Part shown: positions 20,026-40,754 of the stretch, piece by piece | How positions within the stretch are numbered: the first letter of the stretch is position 1 | Layout: every line of letters begins with the position of its first letter | Source: an uncultured Hyphomicrobiales bacterium | GTDB taxonomy: Bacteria; Bacteroidota; Ignavibacteria; Kapaibacteriales; UBA2268 | Assembly: GCA_964634885.1 (NCBI GenBank) | Contig: CAZWLN010000009.1 | Location: 17,735-81,734, forward strand | Length of the DNA stretch: 64,000 nucleotides | Direction of reading: 5' to 3' | Made by a program: the position numbers and the translations under genes | The notes under the pieces: model-generated | Databases searched by the model: none | Told to the model about the DNA's origin: nothing | What the model saw: the letters and a program-made list of their open reading frames with translations, nothing else

Positions 20026-23000
20026 ATGAAAACAATTAAGCTTATATTGTACCTGATTATTTCCCCGTTATTATTATCTGGGACACTCTGTCTGAGCAAA
20101 ACTCCTACCGTGCAGTACAACTACGACGAACTGAACAGGTTGGTAAGAGTTGCTTACGACAACGGCTCAACACAAGTATTTAAATATGACGAATTAGGAA
20201 ATCGAATAGAGCAGATTAATCATTATGTAGGTTTTCTGCAGAAGAACAAGGCAAATCCTTTGGAAATTACCTTATATCAGTTCGAAGATATTGTTTTCCG
20301 CGGTTTGATTGGAGAAGAAGCAGGTATGATTCAAAAGAAGCAGGGTGACAATAAGGAAGTAACGATGAACCTCGATGGTGAAGTACCGGAAGTAAAAAAT
20401 TGGAAATGGATGTTCGAAGGAGATTCTTTGGTTTACGAAGGTCAGGAAGTGTATCATGCATTTTGCAGTCCAGGCAGGTTCAATGTTAAAACAATAGTTG
20501 AGTATATGGACGGTGGAATTGTTTACTACGAGAATTTCATCGATATTTCTCCGGACCTCAGAGTCAGGTCCTATGATTTGTACACATGTAAAAGCGCCGT
20601 TAATATTGAGATAAGCCCATCTGACCTTATATATTGCAATGGCGATATGCTGCCGGTAATGGCTGCCTATGGTGGTTCGGGAGAATACGATTATGACTGG
20701 TATCCAAAGGAGTCTTTGCTCAATTCTAACTCAGAAAAGCCATTGCTGGTTGTAGCAGATACAAATATTTCATTGACATTGAATGTAACCGACAAGGAGA
20801 CTGGTATTACAAGGAGCGGCATTGTTAATGTATATGTCAATCAGGAACCGGTAGTGTTGGAACAGTCCGATGATGTAGAAGTTTGCCTGGGCGAAGATAC
20901 CACATTATTTGTAAAAACAAATTATCAAAACGCTGTTTTTCAGTGGTATAAAAATGATGAGCCAATTGCAAATTCCAATGAAAATCAGTTGATTGTCCAT
21001 GATTTTAATATGTTGAATGCAGGGAAATATAGTTGCAGAGTAATGGATACGAGCTTGTATTCGTGTATTGTATTTTCCGAGGATATTGAGTTATCTAAAG
21101 TTCAGGATATAATAATTGATAGTATTCAGGAATCAGTAATCCTTTGCAATCAAAATGAATACAACTTATTTGTCAAGGCGACAGGTTCATATATTAATTA
21201 CCAGTGGCAAAAAGACGGTCATAACGTAGATAGTCCTAATTCTTCTGAGTATCTTCTAACAGACATCGATTCCAATAAAACAGGAGATTACAGATGCCTG
21301 TTAATAAATTCAAAATGTGGAGATACTACTGTCTCAGGCAATATTCGTATTGACATGGCAGTTCCTCCTGCAATAACAGTTCAACCAGAGAATCAATCAG
21401 TATGCCTTGGTGGAACATTAGCAATCCATATTGAGGCTTCAGGCGATGATCTGCTTTTTGAATGGTATAAAGATAGTGTAATGATAGATACTGATGAGAT
21501 AGCAAAGGATTTAGTTAAACATAATATAACACTTTCTGATACTGGTAAATACTATTGTAATGTCGTTAGTGATAAATGTAAAACTGTTTCCATGAGTAAA
21601 GAAGTTACTGTAAAATTGCGAGAATATCCTTCTGTTGTTGTCAATACGGACTCAGTATTAATTTGTCGGGGCAATACCCTGATACTTAAACCGAAGTCAG
21701 TTTCTGATGGTGTGTATTACCAATGGCAAATCGACAATAAAGACATAGAAAATGCATTCGACAAAGAATACCGTAATTCTCAGCTTACTCATCGGAATTC
21801 GGGATTGTACAGATGCATTGTAACTGATAGTGTTTGTGGATTCAAAGATACTTCAGATTACATTCCGGTTTATGTATACAGAAGTCCGGAAATTATAAGC
21901 CAGATTAAAGATACTGCTGTTTGTGAGGGTGACGATTTAGAATTAAGAATTGAGGCTTTTGGTGATGGATTGCAGTATACATGGAGTAAAAATAATTTCC
22001 CCATAGAGCAGTATACTGAAGGCAAGATAGTAATTAAGAATATTACTAAAGATGATGAAGGATACTATAAATGTGTTGTAGGCAGTAGCTATTGTGGCCG
22101 AGAAAATATAACTTCTAATCTGATTAATGTAAAAGTTAAATTAAAACCAGTAATAGTTGAAACACCTGAAACAAGATACGTTTCTCCGGGTTCAAATATT
22201 GAACTTAGTACCAATGCAGAAAATTGTGATAGTTGTTACTATCAATGGTATATTAACGGGAATTTAATAAACGACGAGAATGGTAAGATTGCAGGTTCAC
22301 AAACGAGTACACTGAAAATTTGGGGATTTGATGTTGAATCGCACTCAGGAGAATATTTTGTTAAAGCTATCAATGAATGTGGGTCTGATCAAAGTGACAA
22401 TTTTACAATAAAAGTAATTGATATAATATCGGAACAACCCCAAAGCAATGGTCTTTGCCTTGGTGATTCGTTTGATATTCCTGTAGTTTTGAAGAACATC
22501 CCCCCCGGTAACGAGCCTCTATTCAAGTGGTATAAAAATGGGATAGAATTACAAAATGCTAATATTAGCAACCTTACATATAGTAGCAAGATTACCTTGA
22601 ATCCTGTATCATACAATGATTCAGGCGAATATCAGGCAGAGATTGTATTAATGCCTTCAGGAATCAAGATATATTCTGAAAAAGCGAATATTTGGGTTGA
22701 AGAAAAAGCTATATTTAATGATATGCCGCCACATACAGTATGTATTGATACAATTACAGGTGATGTAATGGTTTTAGAAGTTATAGCATTTGGTACAAAA
22801 CCAATATATTATCAGTGGTATAAAGACTTGAAACCATTAGCGAATGAAACTAGCTCAATTCTTAAGGTGTATAATCCTGGAAGAAACACCGGTATGTATC
22901 AATGCAAAGCCTGGAATAACTGCAATATAAAGAATTCAGATAGTGCCTTAACTTACTTTGTGAGTGTTTATACGCCTGTTGTAGAGAATAAATCATATTT

Positions 23001-23268
23001 GAATTATAGCCTATTGCCCAATAAACCAAATCCGTTCGATGAAAGTACATTCATCTGTTTTACATTGCCTTACTCACAATATGCAGAATTGACCATCTAT
23101 GATGCTTTAGGAAAAAAAATTATCGTCTTATATCAAGGAATAGCCGATGAAGGATATAATGAAATACAATTCAACTCAAAAGAAATGGACCTTTCAGGTG
23201 GGGTATATTTCTATACTCTTGAAACGTTAACTTTCAAAGATACTAAACCGATGATTCTTTTGAAATAA
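20026..23268 (+). CDS. Ig-like (I-set-type) domain repeat protein with N-terminal YD-repeat fragment and T9SS C-terminal sorting domain
   Basis: Signal peptide; YNYDELNRLVRVAYDNGSTQVFKYDELGNRIEQ (YD repeat); about 10 repeats of roughly 90 aa with W(Y/Q)K(N/D)...G.Y.C pattern; CTD ...GGVYFYTLETLTFKDTKPMILLK. Confidence 0.7.
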   Translation: MKTIKLILYLIISPLLLSGTLCLSKTPTVQYNYDELNRLVRVAYDNGSTQVFKYDELGNRIEQINHYVGFLQKNKANPLEITLYQFEDIVFRGLIGEEAGMIQKKQGDNKEVTMNLDGEVPEVKNWKWMFEGDSLVYEGQEVYHAFCSPGRFNVKTIVEYMDGGIVYYENFIDISPDLRVRSYDLYTCKSAVNIEISPSDLIYCNGDMLPVMAAYGGSGEYDYDWYPKESLLNSNSEKPLLVVADTNISLTLNVTDKETGITRSGIVNVYVNQEPVVLEQSDDVEVCLGEDTTLFVKTNYQNAVFQWYKNDEPIANSNENQLIVHDFNMLNAGKYSCRVMDTSLYSCIVFSEDIELSKVQDIIIDSIQESVILCNQNEYNLFVKATGSYINYQWQKDGHNVDSPNSSEYLLTDIDSNKTGDYRCLLINSKCGDTTVSGNIRIDMAVPPAITVQPENQSVCLGGTLAIHIEASGDDLLFEWYKDSVMIDTDEIAKDLVKHNITLSDTGKYYCNVVSDKCKTVSMSKEVTVKLREYPSVVVNTDSVLICRGNTLILKPKSVSDGVYYQWQIDNKDIENAFDKEYRNSQLTHRNSGLYRCIVTDSVCGFKDTSDYIPVYVYRSPEIISQIKDTAVCEGDDLELRIEAFGDGLQYTWSKNNFPIEQYTEGKIVIKNITKDDEGYYKCVVGSSYCGRENITSNLINVKVKLKPVIVETPETRYVSPGSNIELSTNAENCDSCYYQWYINGNLINDENGKIAGSQTSTLKIWGFDVESHSGEYFVKAINECGSDQSDNFTIKVIDIISEQPQSNGLCLGDSFDIPVVLKNIPPGNEPLFKWYKNGIELQNANISNLTYSSKITLNPVSYNDSGEYQAEIVLMPSGIKIYSEKANIWVEEKAIFNDMPPHTVCIDTITGDVMVLEVIAFGTKPIYYQWYKDLKPLANETSSILKVYNPGRNTGMYQCKAWNNCNIKNSDSALTYFVSVYTPVVENKSYLNYSLLPNKPNPFDESTFICFTLPYSQYAELTIYDALGKKIIVLYQGIADEGYNEIQFNSKEMDLSGGVYFYTLETLTFKDTKPMILLK

Positions 23269-23304
23269 CGGTTTGACAATTTGTTTGAATAGTTACATTT
23301 ATAT

Positions 23305-26300
23305 ATGAGAGTGAAAGTATACATAATAATAGTTCTTAGTATTTCAGAGTTTTGCAGAAGCAATGATTCTATTGCCAAAGATCAATATGATAGTATTTTA
23401 ATATCGTCCAAAAGTTCCATTGTTTGGAGCCGGTATTTCGGAAAAGATGGTGATGAAAGTGCTTATGATTTGGATTTAGATAATCAGGGTAATATTTATA
23501 TTACTGGTTATACTGATAGTGAAAACGGATTTGCTACACAAGGCGCCTATCAAGAAAAGTTTGGAGGAAAATATGATGCATTTCTCCTTAAAATCAATGG
23601 TAAAGGGCAGATTCTTTGGACAACTTATTTGGGTGGTCCAGAATTAGATGTTGCCAATGATCTGATTGTTAAAGACAATTGCATTTATATTGTAGGCAAT
23701 ACTTCAAGTAAAAGTGGCATTGCTTTTGGAAATGTTAGCACCAAGTATGCTGGTGGTGAGTACGATGCTTTCATAGCCAAGTTCGATTTAAACGGAAGTT
23801 TGATTTGGGCAACGTATTATGGTGGTAATGGGAATGATCAAGCTTATGGAATATCATTAAATTCAAATGAGGAAATCATCGTAAGTGGCATAACAAGCAG
23901 TGATAATGGTATTGTAACCAAAGATGCCTTTGAAATAAGCATTCATGAAGGTTTTGATGCTTTTTTTGCTAAATTCAATAGGAACGGACAGCTTATCTAT
24001 GGGACATATTTCGGGGGGAATAACGAAGACCTATGTTATAATACAACTATAGACGATAATGATAATATATATCTATCAGGCTCAACTAATAGCAGTGATC
24101 TGCCTATAACAATTAATAAAAATGGAAAGAGTTATTCTGGTGGGAAAAGGGATGGATTCATTGCCAGGTTTGATAATCAGTTAAACTTGAACTATTGTTC
24201 ATACTACGGCGGAGAAGGTGAAGATATTATTAATGACTTATTGCTAACAAAAGATAAGTTTATAATTCTGGGAACAACTGACAGCCGTAGTGGTATTTCT
24301 TATGGTAATAGCTTTAAGACGATGATTACAGGGGATTCCATCGATAGCTTTGTATCTATGTATGATTTTGATGGAAATGCAATCTGGGGATCATATTATG
24401 GAGGGAATGGTAAGGATGTATTAGAAAGTGCCGAAATAGTCAATGATAGTGTATTATTCATGTTAGGAACTACTGATAGTCAGGAAAATATTTCATCTGA
24501 TAATACTGAGCTAAACCCGAATCCGAATCAATACGATGCTTTCTTGTGTAATTTCGATATATCTGGTAATAGGTTAAGCAGTACTTATTTCGGGGGCAGT
24601 AATAATGATAACCCTTATTCAATCGCCTTTGATGAGAATAATAGTACATTGATAATTACAGGTAATACTCTAAGTAAGGATTACATTTCAATTAATTCGC
24701 CAGAACAGTCATTAAAAGATCAATATAGAGATCTGTTTATCGCAAAATTTAGAACAATTGATCCTAAAATTAACATCAACATAGAAAAAAGAACTTTCTG
24801 TTCGGGATCAACATTTGGAGTTGGTATATTTACTAATACTGAATTTGGCTATGGCAATGTATTTACTATACAATTATCTGACGAAACAGGAAGTTTCGAT
24901 AATCCAATCAATATTGGTAATGTGAATGTAGGAAGTTCAGTTAATCAAAGTGTGACACTGCCAGCAGATTTAAAATATGGGGATAGTTATTCACTAAGAA
25001 TTATATCTTCAAATCCCACATTGCTGAGTGATACAATAACCAACATTATAATAGTACCTTTTATAAAGACCGAATTGATTAACCCCGAATTGAATATTTG
25101 CGAGGGTTCCATAGTAAGCTATTCCTTTAACAAGCAATATGATGAAATTTATTCGCTTGTAACAGTTACTGGTGGTATTATCCTGAGTGACAGTACTCAA
25201 AGCCCTTGTAAAGTATTATGGACGGAACCTGGTAATCATGCAATTACTCTAATATACTCCATGTCTGATACTATGTGTTATGACACTGTTTTGGAAAATG
25301 TCAATGTTTATCCAAAACCCATCGCTGAATTTTCCGGGGATACAGTTGTATGCTTAAACTCAGAAATCCAATATGCTTTGAATAGAGATGATTCAAGTGA
25401 TTATAGATGGGAAGTTGAAAACGGGATAATAACTGACTCAACAGACAGTTATATTACAATATTATGGAATCAATTATCAAGTTGCAAATTATCCCTTACA
25501 GTAATTGGTAATAATAATTGTTGTGACACCTCGGCAAAGCAAATACGAATAAATGAATTACCTAATGTTACCCTTGATGATTTCGAAGACTATGTACTAA
25601 GCACTCCACCCTTCGAACTGAGTGGAGGGCTACCTATTGGTGGTCCATATAGTGGACCAGGTGTCAATAATAATCTGTTCTATCCTACAGAAGCAGGCAT
25701 TGGAAAACATGTAATCACTTATACTTATATCGACTCAAATGGATGTTCATCAAATGCTAAAGCAAATATAATCGTATATCCAGAAAATCCTTTTGTGCAA
25801 TATTCAATAGATAATCCTTTCCCTAATGTAATATGTGAGAGTTTTGATACTGTTTATATTAGTATAACTAATATTGGAGCTAAATCTTTAAATATTCAGA
25901 ATATTGATTTGGTTGGGGAAAACGCAGGTGATTTCAAAATATTAGATATACTGGACTCGATAAGGGGACGGGATTCGGTTATATTGAAGGTATTGTTTAA
26001 CCCTTTGGACACAGGGAATAGAGAAGCCGGAATAATTATTGAGAATGATTCAGATAACAATCCACTTTTGGGGATTGGAATTGGTGGCAGAAAGGATAGT
26101 ACAGGTTTAGTTTTTTCCGATTCGTCAATTCTCTTTTCAAATGTTCCACCCTATATAAAAGTAGAAAAGGAAATTGCCTTAGAGTATTTAGGTACTTTAT
26201 CATATACTACAAGTTTTCCCATTATAATTGATGAGAATTTCACTTTGGAAAGTATAGAGCCTTTAGTATTCGACTCAGATCATAGAAAAGGAATAGCAAA

Positions 26301-27075
26301 GTTTACTTTTAATAATGGGATAGAAGGTCACAACTATTCTGCTACATTTGCACTTATTGATTCACTATGTGGTCATGATGGAGTTATTAATCTTCATGCA
26401 AATGTTAACCCTAAAGGTAAAGTCAGAATTCTTTTAGATACATTATCAGCTTTCCCCGGTGATACTGTGATAATGATTGTTAGATTAACTGACACACTTC
26501 TCTTCCAAGAATCCAGAGTATCTGGAATTAGTTTTCTGTTACATTTGAAATCTACTCTTCTTGAATACATTGGCGAGTACGACTACGAATTAAACGATGA
26601 TGAACGACATATTCATGTGATTCATAACTTCAATAATGGCTTCCAAACACAGCTAAAATTTATTGCAAGATTAAGTTCTGATTCAACTACATTCATTACA
26701 CTAGACAGTATTGAGACTATTGGCGGCCTATTAGATGTAGATGTGGTGAAAGGGATTTTCAAACTATCTGGGATATGTTACGAAGGAGGTCCCAGATTAA
26801 TCGACACGAAAGGCCAAGTTACTATATATTCGATTAAACCTGAACCTGCGATTGATGAATGCATAGTTACCTATGAAACAATCGAAAAGGGTTTAACACA
26901 GCTAATCATCTATAATTCATTAGGCATGGAGTTAAAATCAATTGTTAAGGATGTTATTACTCCTGGTCGCGAATCGTTGACTCTTAACCTTGATGAATTA
27001 TTTTCCGGTACATACTTCTTTGCACTGATTACACCTTCGGATTACAGAATCAAACCATTTAGGATTATCCGGTAA
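23305..27075 (+). CDS. SBBP-repeat beta-propeller protein with Ig-like/CARDB-like region and T9SS C-terminal sorting domain
   Basis: Recurring (Y/F)(Y/L)GG.G.D.(A/G)..I..D....(I/Y)..G.T.S (SBBP-like) repeats; CTD ...SGTYFFALITPSDYRIKPFRIIR. Confidence 0.7.
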   Translation: MRVKVYIIIVLSISEFCRSNDSIAKDQYDSILISSKSSIVWSRYFGKDGDESAYDLDLDNQGNIYITGYTDSENGFATQGAYQEKFGGKYDAFLLKINGKGQILWTTYLGGPELDVANDLIVKDNCIYIVGNTSSKSGIAFGNVSTKYAGGEYDAFIAKFDLNGSLIWATYYGGNGNDQAYGISLNSNEEIIVSGITSSDNGIVTKDAFEISIHEGFDAFFAKFNRNGQLIYGTYFGGNNEDLCYNTTIDDNDNIYLSGSTNSSDLPITINKNGKSYSGGKRDGFIARFDNQLNLNYCSYYGGEGEDIINDLLLTKDKFIILGTTDSRSGISYGNSFKTMITGDSIDSFVSMYDFDGNAIWGSYYGGNGKDVLESAEIVNDSVLFMLGTTDSQENISSDNTELNPNPNQYDAFLCNFDISGNRLSSTYFGGSNNDNPYSIAFDENNSTLIITGNTLSKDYISINSPEQSLKDQYRDLFIAKFRTIDPKININIEKRTFCSGSTFGVGIFTNTEFGYGNVFTIQLSDETGSFDNPINIGNVNVGSSVNQSVTLPADLKYGDSYSLRIISSNPTLLSDTITNIIIVPFIKTELINPELNICEGSIVSYSFNKQYDEIYSLVTVTGGIILSDSTQSPCKVLWTEPGNHAITLIYSMSDTMCYDTVLENVNVYPKPIAEFSGDTVVCLNSEIQYALNRDDSSDYRWEVENGIITDSTDSYITILWNQLSSCKLSLTVIGNNNCCDTSAKQIRINELPNVTLDDFEDYVLSTPPFELSGGLPIGGPYSGPGVNNNLFYPTEAGIGKHVITYTYIDSNGCSSNAKANIIVYPENPFVQYSIDNPFPNVICESFDTVYISITNIGAKSLNIQNIDLVGENAGDFKILDILDSIRGRDSVILKVLFNPLDTGNREAGIIIENDSDNNPLLGIGIGGRKDSTGLVFSDSSILFSNVPPYIKVEKEIALEYLGTLSYTTSFPIIIDENFTLESIEPLVFDSDHRKGIAKFTFNNGIEGHNYSATFALIDSLCGHDGVINLHANVNPKGKVRILLDTLSAFPGDTVIMIVRLTDTLLFQESRVSGISFLLHLKSTLLEYIGEYDYELNDDERHIHVIHNFNNGFQTQLKFIARLSSDSTTFITLDSIETIGGLLDVDVVKGIFKLSGICYEGGPRLIDTKGQVTIYSIKPEPAIDECIVTYETIEKGLTQLIIYNSLGMELKSIVKDVITPGRESLTLNLDELFSGTYFFALITPSDYRIKPFRIIR

Positions 27076-29214
27076 GTGATTATGATCAGAAAAATTCTAT
27101 TAATATCTTTCTTAGTAATGTTTTATTATCCTGCTAACTGTACAGCCATTGATACCAGTAAGGTCAATACCTCTGTTGGAGTAGATTATTACTATTCTCT
27201 TATTTCCAATAACTCTAGTTTTAGTAAGCTGCCTGGGATAAAGAATTGTTGTCCTGTTTTTGATAAAGGTACTGGAAGCAGCTATAAACTGGGAATATTC
27301 TTTGATGTACCTTTTGGGTTGGGTTTTTTCTTAAAAACAAACATCTTCTTTTCAAATACATCATCCAGACTGACAAAAAATGAAAACGTTTTTGTTGCTC
27401 TTCAAGATGAGACGGTTTTGGGTAATTTTGAACATATAATTGAAAACAGGATAAAAATGATAAGCATTCAACCAACAGTTACTTATCAGCTTTTTAGAAA
27501 TTTTAAAACTCATATAGGTTTATGGCTGGGTTATGTATATCATAATTCTTTTATTCAATATGAGAGAATCACAGAACCTGAGAATTCAGGTACATTCATT
27601 AACAAAGACGGCACGAATTCTTATAGTCGCATTCGCAACCTTCAAAAAGGTATTATGCCGAACTATAATAAAGTTCTTTTTGGCTTGTCTGGCGGAGTCG
27701 CTTACCATATGAATCTTGACAAAAATAATAGATTCATGTTAATACCTGAAATTGATTTCTCCCTATTACTTACAAATTTGGTTCATAATCTCGACTGGAA
27801 ATACTCTGAATTGTCATTTGGATTAGGATTTTCCTATAATTTCATTCATTATGATGTCATACCGGAATACAATAAATCCCAAGAAAGTATAATTAGAATT
27901 GATACCATAATAATCGTCGATGACAAAGCCGACTCGCTAATGTTCTGTGAAGGTAAAACACGTTTATTATTGGATACTCAAAAAGTTGCTTCTGTTTACC
28001 TAATCAAAGAATTATTGTTAAGAGTTGATACTCTTTACAAACCTTCAGTGAAAAGCAGAATTGATGTTACTATTGCTTCGGATACCACATTGAAAAACAA
28101 AATCGAACAAATTGTTATAAAAGAGTATCTATCCTTAAAAGGCTATCCTTTTCTGAATTGTATCTTTTTTGAGCGAAATTGCTCTGAACTTCCATCGAGA
28201 TACATTATTCCAAGCAAAGAAGAAATACGGAACTCACATGAATATTCTATAGTGAAATATGAAACTCTGCCTATATATTATAATATTCTGAAGATCATTG
28301 GCTATCGAATGAGTACAAACACTAATTCAACACTTACTATCAATGGGATTGTATCAAACTATGAATATGGGACCGTAGCCAGGGAAAGATGTTTGACGAT
28401 TAAGAGATATCTTGAGAATGTTTTTAATATTGACTCAAACAGAATACATATCATTGCTTCAAAAAGTAAATACTTGCAGGATAATGTTTCCCGGGAGAAA
28501 CAAGAAGAAGACCAAAGAGTTGAAATGACCTCAAATGATAGTGAAGTTTTTGCCCCAATTTTACAAATAGATACTCTGTTCAAAATTGAACCTATGAAGG
28601 TGTACGCCTTTCCCAAAATTACAAATTATCAAGATGTTTCATATTATACATTTGATATTGTGCTTGGCAATGATACTGTTATTACTGATACAATTATCAG
28701 GTTACAAAGTTATTATGAAATCGAACTTTCTAAGTTGAATTTCAAAAAGTATAAAAAGAATCTTACCATTTGTCTATCTTGCTATAATTCAGACAAAGAA
28801 GTTATTACCTCTATTAAAGAAACTGTTCCTTTAGAGTATAAAACAATAAACACTCCACTGTCTTCTGACGAAGGGATCGATTCATACGATAGCTATTGCC
28901 TGATTCTGTTCGATCGTGGTAAAACTGATATTACAGGCCAAAACATTCAAAATGCCGAGATTATCAAATCGAGAATCAGTTCCAATTCTGAAGTTACTAT
29001 TATTGGTTATACCGATAGTATTGGAGAACCCGAATTGAACAAACAATTAGCACTTGAACGTGCTACAAACTTTGCTCGTTTATTGAATTTGGAATCGGCT
29101 TACATCATTGATTCCAAATCGAATATGCCCTTGTATGACAATAGCCTTCCTGAGGGTAGATTATACAGCAGAACAGTTGAAGTAAGAATTAAAAATACAT
29201 TGCCACCCAAATAA
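27076..29214 (+). CDS. OmpA-family outer-membrane protein (N-terminal beta-barrel-like region, C-terminal OmpA/peptidoglycan-binding domain), 712 aa; paralog of 46632-48770
   Basis: Signal peptide; NCCPVFDKGTGSSYKLGIFFD N-terminal block shared with the paralog; C-terminal GYTDSIGEPELNKQLALERA...LPEGRLYSRTVEVRI (OmpA-like TD..G...N..LS..RA). Confidence 0.65.
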   Translation: MIMIRKILLISFLVMFYYPANCTAIDTSKVNTSVGVDYYYSLISNNSSFSKLPGIKNCCPVFDKGTGSSYKLGIFFDVPFGLGFFLKTNIFFSNTSSRLTKNENVFVALQDETVLGNFEHIIENRIKMISIQPTVTYQLFRNFKTHIGLWLGYVYHNSFIQYERITEPENSGTFINKDGTNSYSRIRNLQKGIMPNYNKVLFGLSGGVAYHMNLDKNNRFMLIPEIDFSLLLTNLVHNLDWKYSELSFGLGFSYNFIHYDVIPEYNKSQESIIRIDTIIIVDDKADSLMFCEGKTRLLLDTQKVASVYLIKELLLRVDTLYKPSVKSRIDVTIASDTTLKNKIEQIVIKEYLSLKGYPFLNCIFFERNCSELPSRYIIPSKEEIRNSHEYSIVKYETLPIYYNILKIIGYRMSTNTNSTLTINGIVSNYEYGTVARERCLTIKRYLENVFNIDSNRIHIIASKSKYLQDNVSREKQEEDQRVEMTSNDSEVFAPILQIDTLFKIEPMKVYAFPKITNYQDVSYYTFDIVLGNDTVITDTIIRLQSYYEIELSKLNFKKYKKNLTICLSCYNSDKEVITSIKETVPLEYKTINTPLSSDEGIDSYDSYCLILFDRGKTDITGQNIQNAEIIKSRISSNSEVTIIGYTDSIGEPELNKQLALERATNFARLLNLESAYIIDSKSNMPLYDNSLPEGRLYSRTVEVRIKNTLPPK

Positions 29215-29232
29215 CATATAGCAGCCATTGGC

Positions 29233-30780
29233 TCATCCTTTCTTCTTTTTCTCTCTGAAAGCTCTTTGTTTTTCTGTCCCGGGTGACTGTTTCAACAACC
29301 TGTCAACTTCTGCCATGTTTCCATTCGAAAGTCCTCTGGCTTTCAACCTGATCATTTCGATATATTCATCCAGGGCAACCGACAACGGAAGTTCCGGCAA
29401 TGTTGTCTCCGTATCTTCTTCTTTGAGTATGTCTGTAATAAACCGTTCTGGTAAGTCATGCAGGTGAATAATACCTGTACTGAAACGCCGGAATACTCTT
29501 TTTATCCACTTCTCTAACTCCCTTATATTCCCAGGCCAATCATAATCCATAAGCTTTTCGGTCACACTTTTGTCCAGGATTATCGGCGAAGAAAGAAAAA
29601 ATTGCTTATAATATAATTGGATGAAGTAATCGATTAGTAAAGGGATGTCCTGTCTATGCTCCCGCAATGGTGGTAACAATACGACTTCATCGAACCGGTC
29701 TTTCAGATCGGGGGCAAACAGGGTAGAATCATTGACATTCTTATTGGTGGCGGCTATGATTCTGGTTCCAACTTTCGTTATCTCTGCCGAGCCAAGACTG
29801 CGCACCTCCCCGTCGTTTAAAAACCTTAGCAATGTGTTCTGGCCCTCTTTGGGCATATTACCAATCTCGTCGAGGAACAGGAACCTGTTTTCGGCTTGCT
29901 TTATTATCCCGGGACTTTCCTTATCTGCTCCCGTAAATGCTCCTTTTTTGTACCCGAACAATTCTGCTGCTATCAACTCTCTGGGCAGGGTACCGCAATC
30001 TAGAGTCAACAGGTTGACATCCGATTCGTTCCTGTACAATCTCCAGATTGAATTGGCTACTACTTGTTTGCCGGTACCTCTTTCACCTAATATCAAAACA
30101 GATGTGTTATTGTTAATGTCGTAGAGTATTTGTTCCTTGATCTCTCTAACATTGTCGGATTGGCCGATTAATTCAGGAACCAATAAGTCTAATTCGTGAG
30201 ATGCCAGTTTCTGTACCAGAGCCTTGTTCTCTCTGGTTACCAATGTAAGTTGCCGTTTAATAGCTGAAGGGGCTTCGATGTGAGGAAAGTCATCGATGTT
30301 GAGGTTGACCTCTTTGATATTCGACCTTTTGTCTATGGCAAACCTTGACTCGAATGACTGGATTAACCTGGCATTGGTGATTATACCTGCCTGGCTCAGC
30401 AATATCCAGCAGGCTGTCATTGTGGGAGTGCCCGATGTAATATTGATAATCTTCTCTGCCTGTAAAAAACCGGGGCTGGTATTCAATTCCTGGACTTTGT
30501 CCAATAAAAACGGATAGACAAGATCGTAGTCAATCGGGTTGGGCAGGCTGACAGAGACAATACAAACATTGACTGCCGGGTTTATTGCTTCCATTACAGA
30601 CATATTCTCCAAAGCAATGGAATGATAGCTGATTAGCTCGGACTTCTTGTCGGGAGTAACAAACAGGTAGACCTGTTCAATCTTCTGGGAATACTTCTGA
30701 AATATCGAGAGAACTGCTCCGTATTCGTTTGAGCCGCGCTCAATTTTATCATGATTGCCAATGAAAGAGAGATATTTCAT
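29233..30780 (-). CDS. RtcR-like sigma-54-dependent transcriptional activator: N-terminal CARF-like sensor domain plus AAA+ sigma-54 interaction domain
   Basis: AAA+ bEBP motifs (GERGTGK, ELFGYKKGAFTGA, GAFEGSAEIT-like, GNIRELE); N-terminal region aligns by eye to E. coli RtcR CARF domain (NITSGTPTMTACWILLSQAG...ARLIQS vs HITTGTHVAQICWFLLAEA...ARLIQS). Confidence 0.75.
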   Translation of the reverse strand: MKYLSFIGNHDKIERGSNEYGAVLSIFQKYSQKIEQVYLFVTPDKKSELISYHSIALENMSVMEAINPAVNVCIVSVSLPNPIDYDLVYPFLLDKVQELNTSPGFLQAEKIINITSGTPTMTACWILLSQAGIITNARLIQSFESRFAIDKRSNIKEVNLNIDDFPHIEAPSAIKRQLTLVTRENKALVQKLASHELDLLVPELIGQSDNVREIKEQILYDINNNTSVLILGERGTGKQVVANSIWRLYRNESDVNLLTLDCGTLPRELIAAELFGYKKGAFTGADKESPGIIKQAENRFLFLDEIGNMPKEGQNTLLRFLNDGEVRSLGSAEITKVGTRIIAATNKNVNDSTLFAPDLKDRFDEVVLLPPLREHRQDIPLLIDYFIQLYYKQFFLSSPIILDKSVTEKLMDYDWPGNIRELEKWIKRVFRRFSTGIIHLHDLPERFITDILKEEDTETTLPELPLSVALDEYIEMIRLKARGLSNGNMAEVDRLLKQSPGTEKQRAFREKKKKG

Positions 30781-31784
30781 TTTTTATTATTTATTGGTTG
30801 ATATTTACCTGAATTAATCTTATTAGCAAGTGCTTCATTCATTATTGTCTGAATTTTTTCAAATTTCTCATAAATTATTTTTATACTATCTTGACTATTA
30901 TTCGGAATAAATGTATCTAATCCTCTATTCAACTCAGCCCCTAGTATGTTGTTTAATGTTATATACCTTTCATGTGTAAAAAATGAACTCTTGTTACAAA
31001 AGATTAATTCTACTTTTAAATTTGAAATGTTTTCAATAATAGTACTTATCTTACTATATCTATCATCAGTAGTTTCATTATTATTTCTTGATACCTGCAG
31101 GCTTGCTAATCTTGTGATAAGTGTAAATTTAACTTTATTATTTACCAATGAAATTGCATCAGCAAACTGTTTTAGACCATTTTGATAGTTATCATTCCAT
31201 TTCTCAAAAACATTTCTATCAATCAACACTACTTCAGGGTAAGATATTTGTAATTTGAGAACATTTGACCAAAAAGATATGATTTTATTCATGCCATCGT
31301 CGACAGAACTCGGTTGGGAACAAGAATAACTTGTTTCTAAGCATTTATGATATAGTTCAGAATCATCATATTTATTCATATTTATTGTATTTATACCAGG
31401 TATATTTAAAGAACTATCGAATGTTACAATATAATGTGGTAAATCATTATTTTTTTGATTAATAGCTTTGACGTTATTAATAACCGAACATTTCTTACAA
31501 TCACTACAATCACAAACTGAATCTATTATCTCTTGTTTATCCCAGAAAAATTTTTTCCAAAGTATCTCCAATTTTTTCTTTGGCTCATCTTCGAGAACAT
31601 CCTTTAAATCTAAATATTTTTTAGATAAAGTATTATACGCTCCTTCTTCTATGCAATCAATCCAAACAGTTTGCTTAGTAATGGTGCTAAAAAATGAATT
31701 AACTCTTTGCAATAATAAGTCGGCTTCATCCTCAGTAGAAGGTATATCTAGAATACTAGAATCGATTGTAATGGTTGAAATCAT
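30777..31784 (-). CDS. Hypothetical protein (Cys-cluster CDCSDCKKC), partner gene immediately downstream of the ATPase
   Basis: 335-aa ORF overlapping stops/starts with both neighbours; no confident domain call. Confidence 0.5.
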   Translation of the reverse strand: MISTITIDSSILDIPSTEDEADLLLQRVNSFFSTITKQTVWIDCIEEGAYNTLSKKYLDLKDVLEDEPKKKLEILWKKFFWDKQEIIDSVCDCSDCKKCSVINNVKAINQKNNDLPHYIVTFDSSLNIPGINTINMNKYDDSELYHKCLETSYSCSQPSSVDDGMNKIISFWSNVLKLQISYPEVVLIDRNVFEKWNDNYQNGLKQFADAISLVNNKVKFTLITRLASLQVSRNNNETTDDRYSKISTIIENISNLKVELIFCNKSSFFTHERYITLNNILGAELNRGLDTFIPNNSQDSIKIIYEKFEKIQTIMNEALANKINSGKYQPINNKK

Positions 31785-33427
31785 TAAATCATTTCCTCAT
31801 AACGTTCATCAAAAAAACCGTTAGGCCATTTTGAAGAGAATCTACCTCTTTCATCAATATTGATTTTTGTACAAACTAGCCCATTAGTACTTGATTCAAA
31901 AAAGTAAATTGAAAGGAACTTCTGTTCAATTTGTAGCTTAATTTCTTCATTTTTGCCTTTTATTGTTTCCTTAATACGTCTTAGCAGCCTCAACATCAAG
32001 TGCTCGCTATGGGTTTCAATGAGAAATCTTAATTCTGGTTTTGTATTGATTTGTTCTATAAATAGATCGCCCAAATCTACTTGCATTTTCGGATGAGTGT
32101 GTAGTTCCGGTTGTTCGATAGCTAAAATTGAATTGTTCTGATAAATGGCAGCTACAATAACTGGTATTATCTGTGAAATTCCAACACCAATGTCTATAGG
32201 TTTCAGTTCAATAGTGTTTTCTATGTCTTTTATAAATAAGTCAGTCAAGACATCGGAATTCATCAGAAAACTTTTCAAATCATCTTCATCGACAACTATA
32301 CCCTGAATGATTTTCCTGTGTATATCAGAATCTGTATTCAGAAGTCTATAATCCTTTTTGGCAATCTGATAACCAGTGTCGAATTTTTGCAGCCAACTGT
32401 TTACTTTGTCGAATAGGTCCACATCTCCGTTTCTTAATACTTCCCATGCTAATAGTCCATTTGACCAGTTGACATTACCAGAATTGTGTTTTGAAAAATG
32501 ATGCCTATCCAGAATTTCTCTTAGTGGACCAACATAATTCATTTTACTCAATTCATTGGTCAGATATTCACCAAGACCAACGAAAATTATGTTTAGTATT
32601 TGATGAAATATCTTTTTTTGTTTATTAATATTTTCAAACTCAGCTTTATGATAGTCAGTGAGCTCGTTTACCGGTTTTCTGAATATCAAATCATCAAATG
32701 ACAGAGCTTTTCCCCATATAGGTACTGCTGTCTCTTGCATTAAAACTTCGATTTCATTGAAAACTACATCGCCATTCTCTCCATATACATTGGAATTTAT
32801 AATACAGTCATAAATTTGCAGGAGACGTTGCGATGGATATGAATTGCCTTGCTCATTAGCGTTCATATTATCATTGTCAAGAAATACATTATGATGCAAA
32901 TTCAATTTTTCAACTAATAGGTTTTCCCTCCCACCAGGATTATTCTCTATGATTGAGCCAAAGTGTTCATTATTAAACCCTACATGGTAATTTACTCTGG
33001 GCTTTTCCGTACCATAATCCCAAAAGACTTCCAATTCAATATAAGCCGAATCGATGCTTTCTCTTAAATGTGAGATCAGATTTTCCGGGTCTTCATTGTC
33101 AAGTTCTTGTTCAAAATAAAAATCAAAATAGGGTAACTGCGATGATTTGACATCAAAATCTATTCTTATAATAATTCTATTCTGCAAAATCTGATTATTA
33201 ACAACATTTCGAAAACCTCCGTAATCAATGATATTTCCTCCTAATTCTATCCTGTCAGCCGCGCAGTTCTTATTGAGGAGTATCTCCCTTGCATAATGCA
33301 TTGCCTGGAACACTGTACTCTTACCGGCGCTGTTGGCGCCAAAAAGCAGGGTAATCGGCTTCAGGTCGATTGTTACACCCGGGCTGCCGATACCCTTGAA
33401 GTTCTCGATATAGATTTTTGTTATCAT
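31784..33427 (-). CDS. ABC-type / OLD-family-like ATPase (AAA_15/AAA_21-like) of the kind found in Septu, PARIS, AbiEii and RloA systems
   Basis: Walker A LLFGANSAGKST at N-terminus, distant signature-like GISQIIP, Walker B ILAIEQPELHTHP, H-loop ETHSEHL near C-terminus; no nuclease domain within the protein. Confidence 0.75.
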   Translation of the reverse strand: MITKIYIENFKGIGSPGVTIDLKPITLLFGANSAGKSTVFQAMHYAREILLNKNCAADRIELGGNIIDYGGFRNVVNNQILQNRIIIRIDFDVKSSQLPYFDFYFEQELDNEDPENLISHLRESIDSAYIELEVFWDYGTEKPRVNYHVGFNNEHFGSIIENNPGGRENLLVEKLNLHHNVFLDNDNMNANEQGNSYPSQRLLQIYDCIINSNVYGENGDVVFNEIEVLMQETAVPIWGKALSFDDLIFRKPVNELTDYHKAEFENINKQKKIFHQILNIIFVGLGEYLTNELSKMNYVGPLREILDRHHFSKHNSGNVNWSNGLLAWEVLRNGDVDLFDKVNSWLQKFDTGYQIAKKDYRLLNTDSDIHRKIIQGIVVDEDDLKSFLMNSDVLTDLFIKDIENTIELKPIDIGVGISQIIPVIVAAIYQNNSILAIEQPELHTHPKMQVDLGDLFIEQINTKPELRFLIETHSEHLMLRLLRRIKETIKGKNEEIKLQIEQKFLSIYFFESSTNGLVCTKINIDERGRFSSKWPNGFFDERYEEMI

Positions 33428-33438
33428 GGCTTGATTAT

Positions 33439-33924
33439 TTAGTTAGTGAATAATTTGTTGAAATCCTTTATAAGCATTAGTACAAAAAATACCAATATAC
33501 TTCCAAATAATGTAATTATCTGCCATTTCAATAACTTGTATGTCCTTCTGCTGCATCTTTTTGAAATATTCCTGAATTTCTTGAAATTGTGCTCTTTGTA
33601 TCTCCGGTATTTCCATAAAGTAATTTTTGCGGTTATCCGAAAGTCTTTCAGCCGGTTGGTAACGCAGCAGATGCCAATAATTATTGAAGCCAATATAATA
33701 GATATGCCCAATAGGTAAACTATCGATTCGATAGTATTAAGGTTCAATGAGCTATCGTTCAGGACGCTCAATTCATAGCCGAGAATACCTATTGCAAAAG
33801 TCAGGAACAAATTGATTGTAAACGACAATTGTTTGATGCGGTAGTCCTGCCACCTGGTAAAGGACTCTTTTTTACTCTTTGTTTCTTCCACTGTTAACTT
33901 CTCTTCATTAGTTGATTGATTCAC
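33439..33924 (-). CDS. Small membrane protein (3 predicted TM helices) embedded in the defense array
   Basis: 161-aa ORF with three hydrophobic stretches; overlaps hsdS stop by 4 nt. Confidence 0.5.
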   Translation of the reverse strand: MNQSTNEEKLTVEETKSKKESFTRWQDYRIKQLSFTINLFLTFAIGILGYELSVLNDSSLNLNTIESIVYLLGISIILASIIIGICCVTNRLKDFRITAKITLWKYRRYKEHNFKKFRNISKRCSRRTYKLLKWQIITLFGSILVFFVLMLIKDFNKLFTN

Positions 33925-35075
33925 AGCTCCCCTCTGAAAGCTCTTTGCATCAGTGAATTGAAAAGGTTGTCGCTCTCGGTTAACTGTGCTTGTAGTTTTG
34001 CTTTTAGTTCTTCGATCTTTGTTACAATATCAGCAAATTTGGTTTGTAAAGTAATTGGAGGATAATTTATTGGCCATATTTTAACAATACTAGTATTAAC
34101 TACTCCGTGGGCTGACCCTACCGAATAGCCATAAAGACTACTTTTCCCAAAAGTTAAATTCATATAGAAAGCTATAAATAAAGATTGGAATTTAGTATCA
34201 GAACCAACTACAATAATATTAGCACAATTTGCACCGTCTAGTTCATATGGTACTACTGCGACCATACCCCTATTTACTCCAACTCTTGATATTAAAATAT
34301 CATTAGCATGGATTATAGAATTTTTTAATTTATTATGAAAATCTGTTGATATATAATGTAAATCTTGATAAGTGATTTTCATAGGTCTTATATTCTGAGT
34401 TCTAAGAAATGGAATACCATCCTGTCTATAACCATCAGTTGTTGGTCCAACATGCCCCACAACAATTCTATTAGTCAATTCACCGAGGTTTCTCACTTCC
34501 CAGCCCTTCGGGTTAGTCACCGGGTCTCCAAACATATCGAGAAAGACAGAACGGAGGTATTCATCGCACAATTTCAAGCTCTCACGTAGCTTCTGCCTTA
34601 TTTCGTCCGCTTTGTCAAGAATGGCGGCTATGCGGATCTGGTCCTCGAGAGAGGGGAGTAGAAGTTCCAAATTCTTAAGGTCATCTTGAGTTATCGCATC
34701 AAATGTTGAACCTCTACCACTAGAAGACAATTTAGACTCAATACTTCTAAAAAATCGAAATATAAAATTAAAGTCAACACCTTCTTTTACTCGTATTGCA
34801 CTTAATCCTCTCCCAATACATGCTTTTTGGTTACATATATTGGTTGGGCCAACTGGAGCTCTTACAGAAATAAGTATATCATTTGGTAATGCTATTTTTA
34901 AAGGGATAGAGCACCATTGTCTAATGTTTGGATAAATATAACCAAAATCAGACTTGCCTTGAAAAAAAGGTAATCCTATACAATCATTGTTATATGTTGA
35001 AGACGGTGGCGATTGACCAGCAATTATATCACAAATTTCTTTTAATTTTACTATTTTCATACTTAATTTCTTCAA
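33921..35075 (-). CDS. hsdS: Type I restriction-modification specificity subunit
   Basis: 384-aa protein with two target-recognition-domain-like halves separated by conserved coiled-coil spacers; position downstream of hsdM; typical HsdS blocks (GIPFLRTQNI..., LPSLEDQIRIA). Confidence 0.75.
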   Translation of the reverse strand: MKKLSMKIVKLKEICDIIAGQSPPSSTYNNDCIGLPFFQGKSDFGYIYPNIRQWCSIPLKIALPNDILISVRAPVGPTNICNQKACIGRGLSAIRVKEGVDFNFIFRFFRSIESKLSSSGRGSTFDAITQDDLKNLELLLPSLEDQIRIAAILDKADEIRQKLRESLKLCDEYLRSVFLDMFGDPVTNPKGWEVRNLGELTNRIVVGHVGPTTDGYRQDGIPFLRTQNIRPMKITYQDLHYISTDFHNKLKNSIIHANDILISRVGVNRGMVAVVPYELDGANCANIIVVGSDTKFQSLFIAFYMNLTFGKSSLYGYSVGSAHGVVNTSIVKIWPINYPPITLQTKFADIVTKIEELKAKLQAQLTESDNLFNSLMQRAFRGEL

Positions 35076-35833
35076 TTCAATAAATTAGTTTGACCATCTT
35101 CCAACATTGGAATATCCGGGATAGAAGCTCCTGCTTTACCTTTCATAATTTCAACAAGATATGCAATCCTTTTATTACTCATATTCCTATTATCAAAGAA
35201 TGGAGCAAGTATCAACAATGATTTCTTAGTATCCAGCTCAATTTGTTGATATTCAAAGCAATCTTCTCTTTGAAAATTTTCTTTTTGAGTAACAAACAAC
35301 TCTCTATAATCATTCCAGTGTCCAATGCCAAAACATATGATAAAAGTTGGTTTGTGTTGATTAATATACTGTAAAACTTTTTGCTTTCTTGTTTTCATAA
35401 AGTCCTTGTAGTAGTATTCCTCAGTCATTTCTAATTCTTTTAAAATTTCTGGTGACAACATATCAGTATTCTTATTTCTGCCAATTGGATATAAATTAAT
35501 TTGGAAATTAGAACCCTTTTCAAAAAATAAATATTTATTTATGTATTCTCTTGGTTTTATTTTAATGTTATTAAATGATGTAATAGTTTTTGCCATAATC
35601 GTATAAACACTTGTAAATTTACCACTAAAGCCTTTTTTATTCTTATTCTCCCTAAGTTCTGCCAAATCACTCTCATACCAATTTTCTCTCATTTCCCAGT
35701 CATAAGATTCGGAAATTTTACCAATCTTATCTATTTCGGGTACTTTTGCCTCCTCAATACCAATAAACCAATAATCACTCTCAGGATTACCCATTCCAAT
35801 ATAATTGAGTAAGTTATTACACTTGTCGTTCAC
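35072..35833 (-). CDS. Hypothetical protein inserted between hsdM and hsdS
   Basis: 253-aa ORF overlapping both neighbours by 1-4 nt; no recognisable motifs. Confidence 0.5.
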   Translation of the reverse strand: MNDKCNNLLNYIGMGNPESDYWFIGIEEAKVPEIDKIGKISESYDWEMRENWYESDLAELRENKNKKGFSGKFTSVYTIMAKTITSFNNIKIKPREYINKYLFFEKGSNFQINLYPIGRNKNTDMLSPEILKELEMTEEYYYKDFMKTRKQKVLQYINQHKPTFIICFGIGHWNDYRELFVTQKENFQREDCFEYQQIELDTKKSLLILAPFFDNRNMSNKRIAYLVEIMKGKAGASIPDIPMLEDGQTNLLN

Positions 35834-37329
35834 TACAACATCTCCACTAATTCTTCAATATTAGAAATAATTTCATTTTCCAGTGTTTTCATTTTGCTGA
35901 TAATCACAGAAGGCGCCTCATACTCTTCTTCCTTGTGGACAATTTCCTTGTACTTGTTAATAGACAGGTCGAAATTGTTAGCAACTATTTCACTTTTGTC
36001 CACAGTAAAATGCTTTTGGGTTTTGTCGTTGTTTTCAACCTCGAACCTGTTGTTCCACTTGCCAATGCAGTCAGGTATGTCGCTGCCTTCGACCGGTTGG
36101 CGTTTGTCGTCCAGGGAAAAACCGTCATTGCCCAGGTCATAGAACCAAACTCTATTGGTCTCGCCACCCTTCGTAAGTATCAGAATGGCTGTCGAAACCC
36201 CTGCGTAGGGTTTGAAAACCCCTGCCGGAAGTTTGATAATACCTTCGAGCTGATTCTTCTCGACAATTAGTTTCCTCAGTTCAATATGAGCGTTGGAAGA
36301 CCCGAACAAAACACCGTCAGGCACTATTGTGGCGCATCTGCCCCCGAGTTTTAGCATTCTGAGCATCAGCACAATGAAGAGTAGTTCGGTTTTCTTTGTT
36401 TTTACCTTGCTCAACAGGTCTTCGGCAACATCTTCGAAGTCGAGACTGCCTTTGAAAGGTGGATTGGCTAAAATAGCGTCGAAATAGTTCCCGGACAATG
36501 AAGGTTGTTTGTCGGCAAATGACTGGCTTAACGTGTCCTGGTATATAATGCCCGGGGAGTCGATGCCGTGGAGCATCAGATTCATGGCGGCAATTCTTAA
36601 CATTGTAATGTCGAAATCGAAGCCGTGGAGCAATTCTTTTTGCACATGTTCTCTGTACTTTTCGAGCAAGTCTTCCGAATAGGAAATATGTCCGTCTTCA
36701 TGTGTATATTTTCCCTTTTCAGAAGTGTATTTTACTTTGATGAATTCTCGTGTTTGCATTAGAAAACCGGCAGTACCACAAGCAGGGTCGCCGATTCTTT
36801 CGTATGGTTTTGGGTCGATAACATTGACCATAAGGTCGATGATATGGCGGGGAGTACGGAACTGGCCGTTAATACCCGCTGTTGTAAGCTTACTTAGCAG
36901 GTATTCATACAAATCGCCCTTGGTGTCGCCTTCAGTCAAAGGCAATTTGTCGATCATCTCAACGGCAGAAGACAGCAGGCTTGGTTTCTGAATCAGCAAT
37001 TGAGCGTCTGAAAGATAGACAGAAAGCCCGTTGCCAATTTCTTTAAAATGGGGAAAAACTTTATCCCGAACCAATTTGAGCATATTTTCGGGTTCAAGAT
37101 GAATAAAATTCGACCAACGTAAATCTTGATTATCAGAATTAAATTTGCCTTCGTGTTTTAGTTTTAAACGCTGAGCTTTCTTTTCTTCACGAGTTTCATT
37201 GATATCGATCAGCCGTATAAACATTAGAAATGTTATTTGCTCGATTACCGTCAAAGGATTGGTAATTCCACCAGTCCAGAATTCTTCCCAAAGCTTGTCT
37301 ATTTTACTTTTCAATTCACTATTCATCAT
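35833..37329 (-). CDS. hsdM: Type I restriction-modification DNA methyltransferase subunit (N6-adenine)
   Basis: N-terminal HsdM_N-like region, [12 protein letters not shown], catalytic NPPF ([10 protein letters not shown]). Confidence 0.9.
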
Positions 37330-40300: not shown

Positions 40301-40704
40301 ATGAAACTATTTATATTCTGGGGCTCGGTCTGATAAAATACTATCATTAGCCACTTAGAAATAATATATGCAATATTAAGAAGCTTTTTGGCTTCTGTTT
40401 CATTTACCGATTCACCATGAGCCGCTTTATTTCCGGACAATCTCAGAAGGTGAAGATTTGATATAATAGAACTCTGAATTTGTTCATTTTTGTTTAGAGC
40501 CTCTAATAAGGAGAAAAGATTTTTTTCTTCTAAATACTCCAATTTCAAATTATTGTATAGAACCCTTACATACTTTTCTGCAAAAGTTCTTAATTTAATA
40601 GCAGTTACAGATGAATCCAGAAGCAGATACTGTTCAGCCAATTCTCCCAGAGCTGATAATTCTGGGAGTTTTTCTTTTAAAAAAATAAAATTGTTGTCTG
40701 CCAT
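37330..40704 (-). CDS. hsdR: Type I restriction enzyme R subunit with N-terminal DUF4145-like domain
   Basis: Helicase motifs [11 protein letters not shown] (Walker A) and IIADESHRS (DEAH); 1124 aa; immediately upstream of hsdM. Confidence 0.85.
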
Positions 40705-40738
40705 TTAATCCCTTTTTTTTACAATCCATTTAAGGTAT

Positions 40739-40754
40739 TACAATTGGTATGCCA
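40739..40754 (-). promoter_or_regulatory. Weak sigma-54-like -24/-12 element TGGCAT-N5-TTGTA about 35 bp upstream of hsdR start (imperfect -12: GT instead of GC)
   Basis: Reverse complement of 40739-40754 reads TGGCATACCAATTGTA; spacing to hsdR ATG compatible with a promoter. Confidence 0.25.

Follow-up and report, generated by a model that had tools for sequence, protein, structure and literature searches.

To our knowledge, the cargos of type IX secretion systems (T9SS) are anchored at the cell surface of the studied species in two ways alone: those with a type-A C-terminal domain (CTD) are attached by PorU to anionic lipopolysaccharide (A-LPS), and those with a type-B CTD are held by PorP-like barrels. 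For the type-B proteins, PorP/SprF-like barrels have been described as the holding element and PorE-like OmpA_C proteins as the link to the wall; in Flavobacterium johnsoniae six porP-like genes adjoin porE-like genes, and it has been suggested that mobile cargos be distinguished from wall-anchored ones (PMC9143113). In addition, PorQ is the listed anchor of PorZ, a beta-propeller protein, and PorQ and PorV anchor the CTD proteins PorZ and PorU (PMC7463736). Here we analyze two gene pairs, each joining a T9SS cargo to a barrel-OmpA protein that we call its partner, in a 64,000-nucleotide (nt) stretch of DNA (hereafter the window) from an uncultured Hyphomicrobiales bacterium (GTDB lineage Bacteroidota; Ignavibacteria; Kapaibacteriales; UBA2268; assembly GCA_964634885.1, contig CAZWLN010000009.1, positions 17,735-81,734, forward strand). 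Gene neighborhood and predicted structure, on which all functional claims below are based, lead us to favor, by a modest degree, the reading that the partners are cargo-dedicated outer-membrane proteins that probably retain their cargos on the cell surface.

As in the PorP/SprF and PorE systems (PorE-PorP-PG1035 as well as SprF-SprB), a cargo-dedicated barrel gene lies beside the cargo gene, multiple paralogs occur per genome, and a link to a peptidoglycan-binding OmpA_C module is optional. The barrel-only and barrel-OmpA forms of the present family parallel the mobile/wall-anchored distinction proposed for those systems. In contrast to them, barrel and two OmpA_C domains are combined here in one polypeptide, the barrel is small (PorP has 14 strands, for which about 300 residues are expected), and in the cargos the type-A CTD comes after a cohesin-like domain with its Cys linker. 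The lineages also differ, with PorP/SprF belonging to Bacteroidia/Flavobacteriia and the present family to Kapabacteria/Ignavibacteria. The initial annotation of this DNA had likened the partners to the SprF/PorP-type partners of type-B cargos, and profile searches do not support this for either the barrels or the cargos. The PorP/SprF models PF11751/TIGR03519 matched none of the full proteins at E<=0.01 and, even with the threshold relaxed to E<=1, none of the isolated barrels; 36 family members gave no match either. No PorV or PorQ model from NCBIfam or Pfam was among the matches at E<=0.01, and no NCBIfam T9SS barrel model matched. The PorE model NF052230 reached 23 bits against a 600-bit cut-off and covered the OmpA_C part alone; the partners also lack the PorE hallmarks of a lipobox, tetratricopeptide repeats or a propeller.

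The PorQ-PorZ and PorV-PorU pairs of the Porphyromonas gingivalis attachment complex offer a second parallel, in which surface proteins with type-A-like CTDs are held by a specific outer-membrane barrel. Those pairs are single-copy core machinery, whereas the family described here is multi-copy and accessory and in the window is carried on a mobile island, its cargo passengers are diverse, and it shows no homology to the PorQ or PorV models. OmpA and OprF (an 8-stranded barrel plus OmpA_C) share with the partners an N-terminal small barrel and a periplasmic OmpA_C domain, but the partners are twice as long, with two OmpA_C domains split by beta-sandwich domains, and their family has a conserved loop with an invariant Cys, pairs with one T9SS cargo class and includes barrel-only members. 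We describe the family as a putative functional analogue of PorP-PorE with its type-B cargos and of PorQ-PorZ that nonetheless belongs to a different family. In the literature on cohesin and T9SS, on the T9SS of Ignavibacteria/Kapabacteria and on PF13568, we found no description of this barrel-cargo pairing.

Architecture of the partners and their cargos

The two modules comprise four open reading frames (ORFs): 23305-27075 (+, 1256 amino acids (aa)), 27076-29214 (+, 712 aa), 41402-46654 (-, 1750 aa) and 46632-48770 (-, 712 aa). Cargo 1 (23305..27075, +) is a 1256-aa secreted protein matching Pfam SBBP and PKD_6 and NCBIfam choice_anch_D. The ORF of partner 1 was said to follow it without a gap, which is true of the maximal ORF, opening at GTG 27076, but not of the most likely start, ATG 27082, 6 nt past the cargo 1 stop; partner 1 (27082..29214, +) is then a 710-aa barrel-OmpA protein and a divergent family member. 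In the second copy, the 23-nt overlap reported between cargo and partner is an artefact of extending the cargo ORF to a TTG. Gene callers place the start of cargo 2 at ATG 46618 (1738 aa, P0126), leaving a gap of 13 nt to partner 2. Cargo 2 (41402..46618, -) contains a vWA domain, a WD40 propeller array and choice-of-anchor-D/ASH Ig domains, after which come the cohesin-like domain, the Cys linker and the type-A CTD, and partner 2 (46632..48770, -) is a 712-aa barrel-OmpA protein and a typical family member. The modules are not collinear: transcription runs from cargo to partner in copy 1 and from partner to cargo in copy 2. Scans for sigma-70 promoters and terminators were uninformative, the DNA being AT-rich.

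The partners align end to end with 30% identity (E 8e-95), and OmpA_C is present in both, as expected of the OmpA-like paralogs proposed initially. The best relatives of partner 2 elsewhere share 39% identity with it, while partner 1 shares about 30% identity with every sequence compared and comes 200th of 208 among partner 2's relatives. Judged from these sequence comparisons, the two are old paralogs. The idea of a duplicated module holds insofar as there are two cargo-partner pairs with paralogous partners, but the duplication is not a recent one.

An AlphaFold2 (AF2) model of partner 2, built from a 36-sequence alignment, has a mean predicted local distance difference test score (pLDDT) of 87 and divides the protein into a signal peptide (residues ~1-24), a barrel (26-248), a beta-sandwich (257-351), a first OmpA_C-like domain (355-484), an Ig-like domain (493-590) and a second OmpA_C-like domain (600-710). 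On the minus strand of the window, the barrel (taken as aa 25-250) is encoded at 48021..48698. It is followed by the beta-sandwich linker domain (aa 255-352, 47715..48008), which has no Pfam match and is predicted to be periplasmic, then by OmpA_C-like domain 1 (aa 355-486, 47313..47708), the Ig-like beta-sandwich (aa 492-592, 46995..47297) and OmpA_C-like domain 2 (aa 598-712, 46635..46979). PF00691 (OmpA_C-like) scores 39.5 and 58.2 bits against a 27.2-bit cut-off and matches 36/36 family members; in partner 1 the Pfam OmpA match (E 7.6e-10) spans aa 611-672. OmpA_C domains were the only matches of the family profile to PDB sequences, and Foldseek searches of the PDB with the partner 2 model returned those of OprF, A. 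baumannii OmpA and Pal (E about 1e-7). The C-terminal domain carries the canonical D...R motif, whose Asp and Arg are the diaminopimelate-binding residues of OmpA_C-like domains, with D648 and R663 invariant; in partner 1 the corresponding peptidoglycan-binding motif, GYTD..G....N..L..RA, lies at 29005..29064 (+). In the first domain R434 is kept and N418 replaces the canonical peptidoglycan-binding Asp. Both OmpA_C domains may tie the protein to peptidoglycan.

The barrel spans about 225 aa, and its strand pattern is compatible with 8 (possibly 10) strands in what is a predicted model only. Foldseek matched it best to Ail and to the transmembrane domain of OmpA (TMt 0.4-0.6), with weak similarity to the outer-membrane proteases OmpT and Pla (TM about 0.3). 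FadL-type barrels scored below TMt 0.2, and the barrels matched were small ones, not FadL- or PorV-like. PF13568 (OMP_b-brl_2) matched 10/36 members (best E 1.8e-11) and neither window copy even at E<=1. The NCCP(V/K)F block singled out in the initial annotation is present in both partners and conserved throughout the family, in the fuller form LPG(I/V)(K/P)NCCP(V/K)F. It reads LPGIKNCCPVF in partner 1 (27229..27261, +), in predicted extracellular loop 1, and LPGVPNCCPKF in partner 2 (48603..48635, -), between barrel strands 1 and 2. Every aligned member (36/36) has Cys52, and C53 is present in 83%. E97 and E157 are also invariant, and H114, Q155, R181 and N182 are found in 92-97% of members. 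C52, E97, H114, Q155, E157 and R181 are all predicted to lie in the upper half of the barrel. Standard topology rules for such proteins call for a periplasmic N-terminus, an even strand number and periplasmic OmpA domains, which would make the Cys loop face outward. The predicted surface side of the barrel is unusually conserved, the opposite of the usual loop variability. A loop-3 sequence, F-x-D-x-x-G-N-D-T, was considered as a dockerin-like calcium loop and ruled out by its wrong spacing and the lack of a helix.

Domain matches confirmed the SBBP assignment of cargo 1 (beta-propeller repeats, Pfam E 6e-15) and the vWA-WD40 assignment of cargo 2. Besides the repeats, cargo 1 has PKD/Ig-like, choice-of-anchor-D and cohesin-like domains, a Cys linker and a divergent type-A-like CTD. 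The two cargos had been called unrelated, which is correct for their N-terminal passengers but not for their last ~400 aa, which are homologous (E 6e-18). The shared region includes a cohesin-like domain, located at 26422..26775 (+) in cargo 1 (aa 1040-1157; iterated pre-CTD HMM (hidden Markov model) and family profile against the PDB) and at 41705..42100 (-) in cargo 2 (aa 1507-1638). It continues through the linkers CYEGGPRL (26776..26799, +) and CREGGSRL (41681..41704, -) and ends in the CTDs at 26818..27072 (+, aa 1172-1256) and 41405..41659 (-). The cargo 2 CTD is matched by TIGR04183 (26.9 bits, cut-off 23) and PF18962 (32.7-34.9 bits, cut-off 27). That of cargo 1 is type-A-like, reaching 16.3 bits with PF18962, under the 27-bit cut-off, and it aligns with the cargo 2 CTD and is found by an iterated CTD HMM. 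The type-B model TIGR04131 did not match the cargos. Among cargos adjacent to partners in other loci, Por_Secre_tail (type A) matched 28/28 and CHU_C (type B) matched 5/28, weakly; the class is type A, not type B. Within cargo 2, the WD40 array (43542-45002) consists of 123-129-nt DNA repeats with 63-83% mutual identity, and the peptide IASGS.D.TIKIWDAKTG.E..TL.GH recurs almost unchanged in several blades, as if the blades had been amplified recently.

Cargos adjoining partners share a 131-residue domain directly before the CTD, whose profile finds scaffoldin cohesins in the PDB (E about 1e-3); Pfam Cohesin (PF00963) matches 7/28 of these domains. In the AF2 model of the cargo 2 module (pLDDT 90), a disordered though conserved linker joins a cohesin fold to the CTD, and type I cohesins head the single-domain Foldseek matches (TMt 0.58-0.65). 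Between cohesin-like domain and CTD, the motif C-x-E-G-G-x-R-L occurs in 51/53 cargos, its Cys being invariant, and the residues past this Cys form the sole low-confidence segment of the module model. A linker that is conserved and unstructured is what would be expected of a recognition or attachment site.

The cohesin fold raises the possibility that the domain recruits dockerin-bearing enzymes into a cellulosome-like assembly with which the barrel has nothing to do, a proposal compatible with surface retention by the partner. Cohesin-plus-CTD proteins are on record, solely as putative scaffoldins, in Cloacimonadota (PMC8542988). Unlike the cohesins of cellulosomal scaffoldins, which the domain resembles in fold (TM about 0.6, type I), the cargo domain is single-copy and membrane-proximal, always right before the CTD and on unrelated kinds of passenger, and is followed by the invariant Cys motif. 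The window proteins scanned contained no detectable dockerin, and dockerin recruitment would leave the linkage to a barrel unexplained; we consider it highly improbable.

The conserved residues of the upper barrel could instead belong to a surface enzyme that processes the cargo or attaches it covalently at the linker, with sortase- or omptin-like Cys/His/Glu/Arg residues, replacing or supplementing PorU. The (near-)invariance of C52, E97, H114, Q155, E157 and R181, the recognition-site-like character of a linker that is conserved yet disordered, and the weak fold similarity to OmpT and Pla would all be consistent with such an activity. The scores to these proteases are low, however, no homology to any catalytic family was found, and the charged positions may be conserved simply for a structural role in the barrel interior. 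The chance that the barrel is an enzyme therefore appears very slim.

Gene linkage in both sampling directions

About 800 relatives of the partners, typically 670-720 aa, were found in the protein database, annotated at best as 'OmpA family protein' and originating from metagenome-assembled genomes (MAGs) of Ignavibacteria, Kapabacteria or Bacteroidota. A scan of species-representative genomes gave at least 591 matching places, and several MAGs have two or three copies. The loci are mostly MAG or metagenome contigs of uncertain taxonomy, and some record titles name unrelated taxa, which we treat as unreliable bin labels.

Linkage was sampled from the partner side in 79 loci from species-representative genomes, using our own crude ORF calling and a CTD HMM iterated from four window CTDs (20026-23268, 23305-27075, 41402-46654 and 56474-59656). 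The position immediately upstream (-1) of the partner is taken by a CTD protein in 39/78 cases (Fisher p 1e-13) and the one immediately downstream (+1) in 18/75 (Fisher p 0.003), whereas positions +-3 to +-5 show a frequency of about 10%. The adjacent proteins are of a particular kind: 45/52 carry the cohesin-like domain, compared with 8/61 of the non-adjacent CTD proteins (p 7e-16). All 56 genes with a cohesin-like domain (56/56) share the partner's strand, 48 of them at +-1. Of the 73 partners whose two neighbors are both visible, 43 adjoin, at +-1, a same-strand cargo of the cohesin type. Cohesin-type pairs occur in both orders found in the window, cargo then partner in 32 and partner then cargo in 12, with gaps mostly of -4 to +50 nt. 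In the window itself, both cohesin-type CTD cargos (2/2) adjoin a partner, and none of the three other CTD proteins (0/3; 3630-6590, 20026-23268 and 56474-59656) is immediately adjacent to one. Separate copies of this multi-copy family adjoin separate cargos. Downstream of long partners there is no third conserved gene, the neighbors being heterogeneous (glycosyltransferase, unrelated proteins).

From the cargo side, a metagenome scan for the cargo motif, which covers solely cargos with the exact sequence [GED][IV]CREGGxRL, yielded 47 loci. In a six-frame search, a partner barrel gene was found at most two genes away on the same strand in 26/35 assessable loci, or roughly 19/27 by hand count after removal of near-duplicate loci. 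The co-occurrence of the partner family with T9SS cargos expected from the initial annotation is thus strong whichever gene is used as the starting point. A vWA-WD40 cargo with flanking partner genes recurs in L098, L114 and L115, and the copy 2 arrangement is therefore conserved elsewhere. What the initial annotation had missed is that the tie between cargo and partner is the shared module of cohesin-like domain, Cys linker and CTD, and that the OmpA part is optional in the family.

Barrel-only partners come from high-GC Kapabacteria contigs, in which an SBBP/DUF7948 cargo of about 1540-1770 aa with the motif EICREGGDRLF is followed by a 256-261-aa barrel-only protein that keeps the NCC, EH, QxE and RN residues. 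At one locus, a 500-aa protein with a barrel and a single OmpA_C likewise follows such a cargo and retains NCC, EH and QxE. Because barrel-only forms follow cargos, the barrel is the constant, cargo-linked element and the OmpA extension is optional. A profile search of a 5.8-billion-protein database with the barrel gave 14 matches, useful solely as proof of barrel-only proteins, and the same search with the cargo module gave 5 weak matches (a word-index limit). Directly downstream of the barrel gene, this lineage has a gene for a T9SS Plug-like protein of 430 aa (L131:7768-9072, L132:8730-10028, L134:1301-2593), matched by PF17116, the model of the first Plug domain, with 30.7 bits against a 23.9 cut-off in one locus and with 20-22 bits in two others. 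The order SBBP cargo, barrel, Plug-like gene is found in six further loci (L087, L096, L097, L100, L105 and L107). The Plug-like genes of this lineage adjoin flagellar hook genes.

The Plug-like neighbor bears on whether the barrel might be a cargo-specific export helper, collecting its cargo from the SprA/Sov translocon, as PorV does with type-A cargos and as has been proposed for PorP/SprF-like proteins, and leaving release or anchoring to other means. The linkage data apply equally to such a role, and a proposal exists that PorP-like proteins receive their substrates straight from the translocon (PMC7463736). However, larger barrels have been described for PorV and PorP, with 14 strands in PorP (PMC9143113), while the barrel here is of the small OmpA/Ail type, and its fusion to two peptidoglycan-binding domains favors a static tether over a shuttle. 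We regard the export role as unlikely, though worth keeping in view.

It could also be argued that the partners are ordinary structural OmpA-like proteins, placed beside cargos by co-expression or shared mobility and making no direct contact with them. Their sole matches are to OmpA and generic barrel families, their source annotations say as much, and both modules of the window are carried on a mobile island. Such proteins would not be expected to keep to one cargo subclass, as the contrast between 45/52 adjacent and 8/61 non-adjacent proteins indicates, or to show a linkage that stands in both sampling directions and extends to barrel-only forms without OmpA domains. The pairing of different copies with different cargos and the conserved surface-side barrel residues also argue against this explanation, which we judge improbable.

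Some loci depart from the common arrangement. An 825-aa OmpA_C gene without the NCC barrel motif follows the cargo in L017; its N-terminus is TolB/PD40-like and recalls PorE, so that the cargo is sandwiched by a barrel-OmpA gene and a PorE-like gene. In L098 a 686-aa OmpA_C gene, likewise without the motif, precedes the cargo. Large genes upstream of the partners in L025, L029, L030 and L048 (1956-2150 aa) end in or just past the cohesin-like domain, without a CTD that could be detected, and run 35-58 nt into the partner ORF; frameshifts or variants lacking the CTD may account for them.

A proposed route to surface retention

The linkage data provide support for the proposal that the partner family, found mainly in Kapabacteria and Ignavibacteria, supplies a barrel that works with one type-A cargo subclass, defined by a cohesin-like domain, C-x-E-G-G-x-R-L and CTD; on balance, we lean toward this interpretation. 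The cargo would leave the cell via the T9SS. Its membrane-proximal cohesin-linker module would then dock on the outward side of the barrel encoded beside it, so that the cargo is held at the surface. In the long form, the two periplasmic OmpA_C-like domains would tether the barrel, and hence the cargo, to peptidoglycan. The dedicated T9SS adaptor or anchor suggested initially is retained here in the sense that the two-way linkage, the confidently predicted barrel and the Plug-like neighbor all fit it, with the role itself derived from gene linkage.

Paired invariant cysteines in cargo and barrel suggest a more specific version, in which the cargo Cys and the barrel loop-1 Cys form an intermolecular disulfide or other covalent link. 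This would constitute a third anchoring mode, running from outer membrane to peptidoglycan and independent of A-LPS. We put it forward tentatively, as a rather doubtful extension of surface retention by the barrel.

Several observations weigh against retention by the partner. Type-A cargos of studied species are anchored via A-LPS and do not need a protein anchor. Profile searches with 36 members detected no homology between the barrel and known T9SS components. A cargo is missing from the immediate neighborhood of about 40% of partners, and a partner from that of about 25-30% of cohesin-type cargos. The extracellular position of the Cys loop derives from topology rules applied to a predicted model. 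Finally, a mutual-information scan with average product correction (APC) over 58 non-redundant partner-cargo pairs gave no clear enrichment in surface loops, although we judged it underpowered.

The mobile island and the wider meaning of the pairing

Both modules lie on an integrative island of 41 kb (9958..51059) bounded by a perfect 47-nt direct repeat, with copies at 9958-10004 and 51013-51059 that are identical to the 3' part of tRNA-Thr (51017-51090, -). A tyrosine integrase gene (49702-50769, +) occupies the right end, and the island is low in GC (about 33-36% versus about 46-50%). Among its other contents are a gene for an RHS toxin and a set of defense-like genes that includes a type I restriction-modification system.

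The RHS locus (10393-20006) encodes a 2155-aa RHS protein that has PKD, DUF5648 and, at its N-terminus, a lipase-like alpha/beta-hydrolase region. The RHS gene is followed by three paralogous ORFs in tandem, each of about 340-368 aa (16857-17876, 17880-18986 and 18990-20006), over DNA repeats with a period of 1020-1110 nt. They had no Pfam or NCBIfam match and may be an immunity or orphan-module array. A defense-like block occupies the minus strand at 29233-40704. It includes an RtcR-like activator with CARF and sigma-54 AAA+ domains (29233-30780), with rtcBA absent nearby, a PLD-like/MIT_C protein (30777-31784) and an AAA_15/DUF3696 ATPase (31784-33427). The type I system consists of hsdS (33921-35075), hsdM (35833-37329) and hsdR (37330-40704), with an additional 253-aa gene (35072-35833) between hsdS and hsdM. 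Between partner 2 and the integrase gene, the intergenic segment 49121-49275 holds at least six tandem copies of an 11-nt unit (GCTTGTATTGT-like), which could be arm-type recombinase sites or iterons. A second WD40 protein of 696 aa (6948-9038) is encoded just beyond the island edge.

Overall, the finding points to a third, modular solution to cargo anchoring in a sister lineage of Bacteroidota, which would combine an unrelated small barrel, often fused to peptidoglycan-binding domains, with tagged type-A cargos. If this is true, it would provide a sequence rule for predicting surface-retained cargos in Kapabacteria and Ignavibacteria, and engineered surface display would gain a compact system of two parts. 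It would also give names to a large family now labeled 'OmpA family protein' or 'hypothetical protein', and would explain how mobile islands are able to deliver self-sufficient surface-display cassettes.

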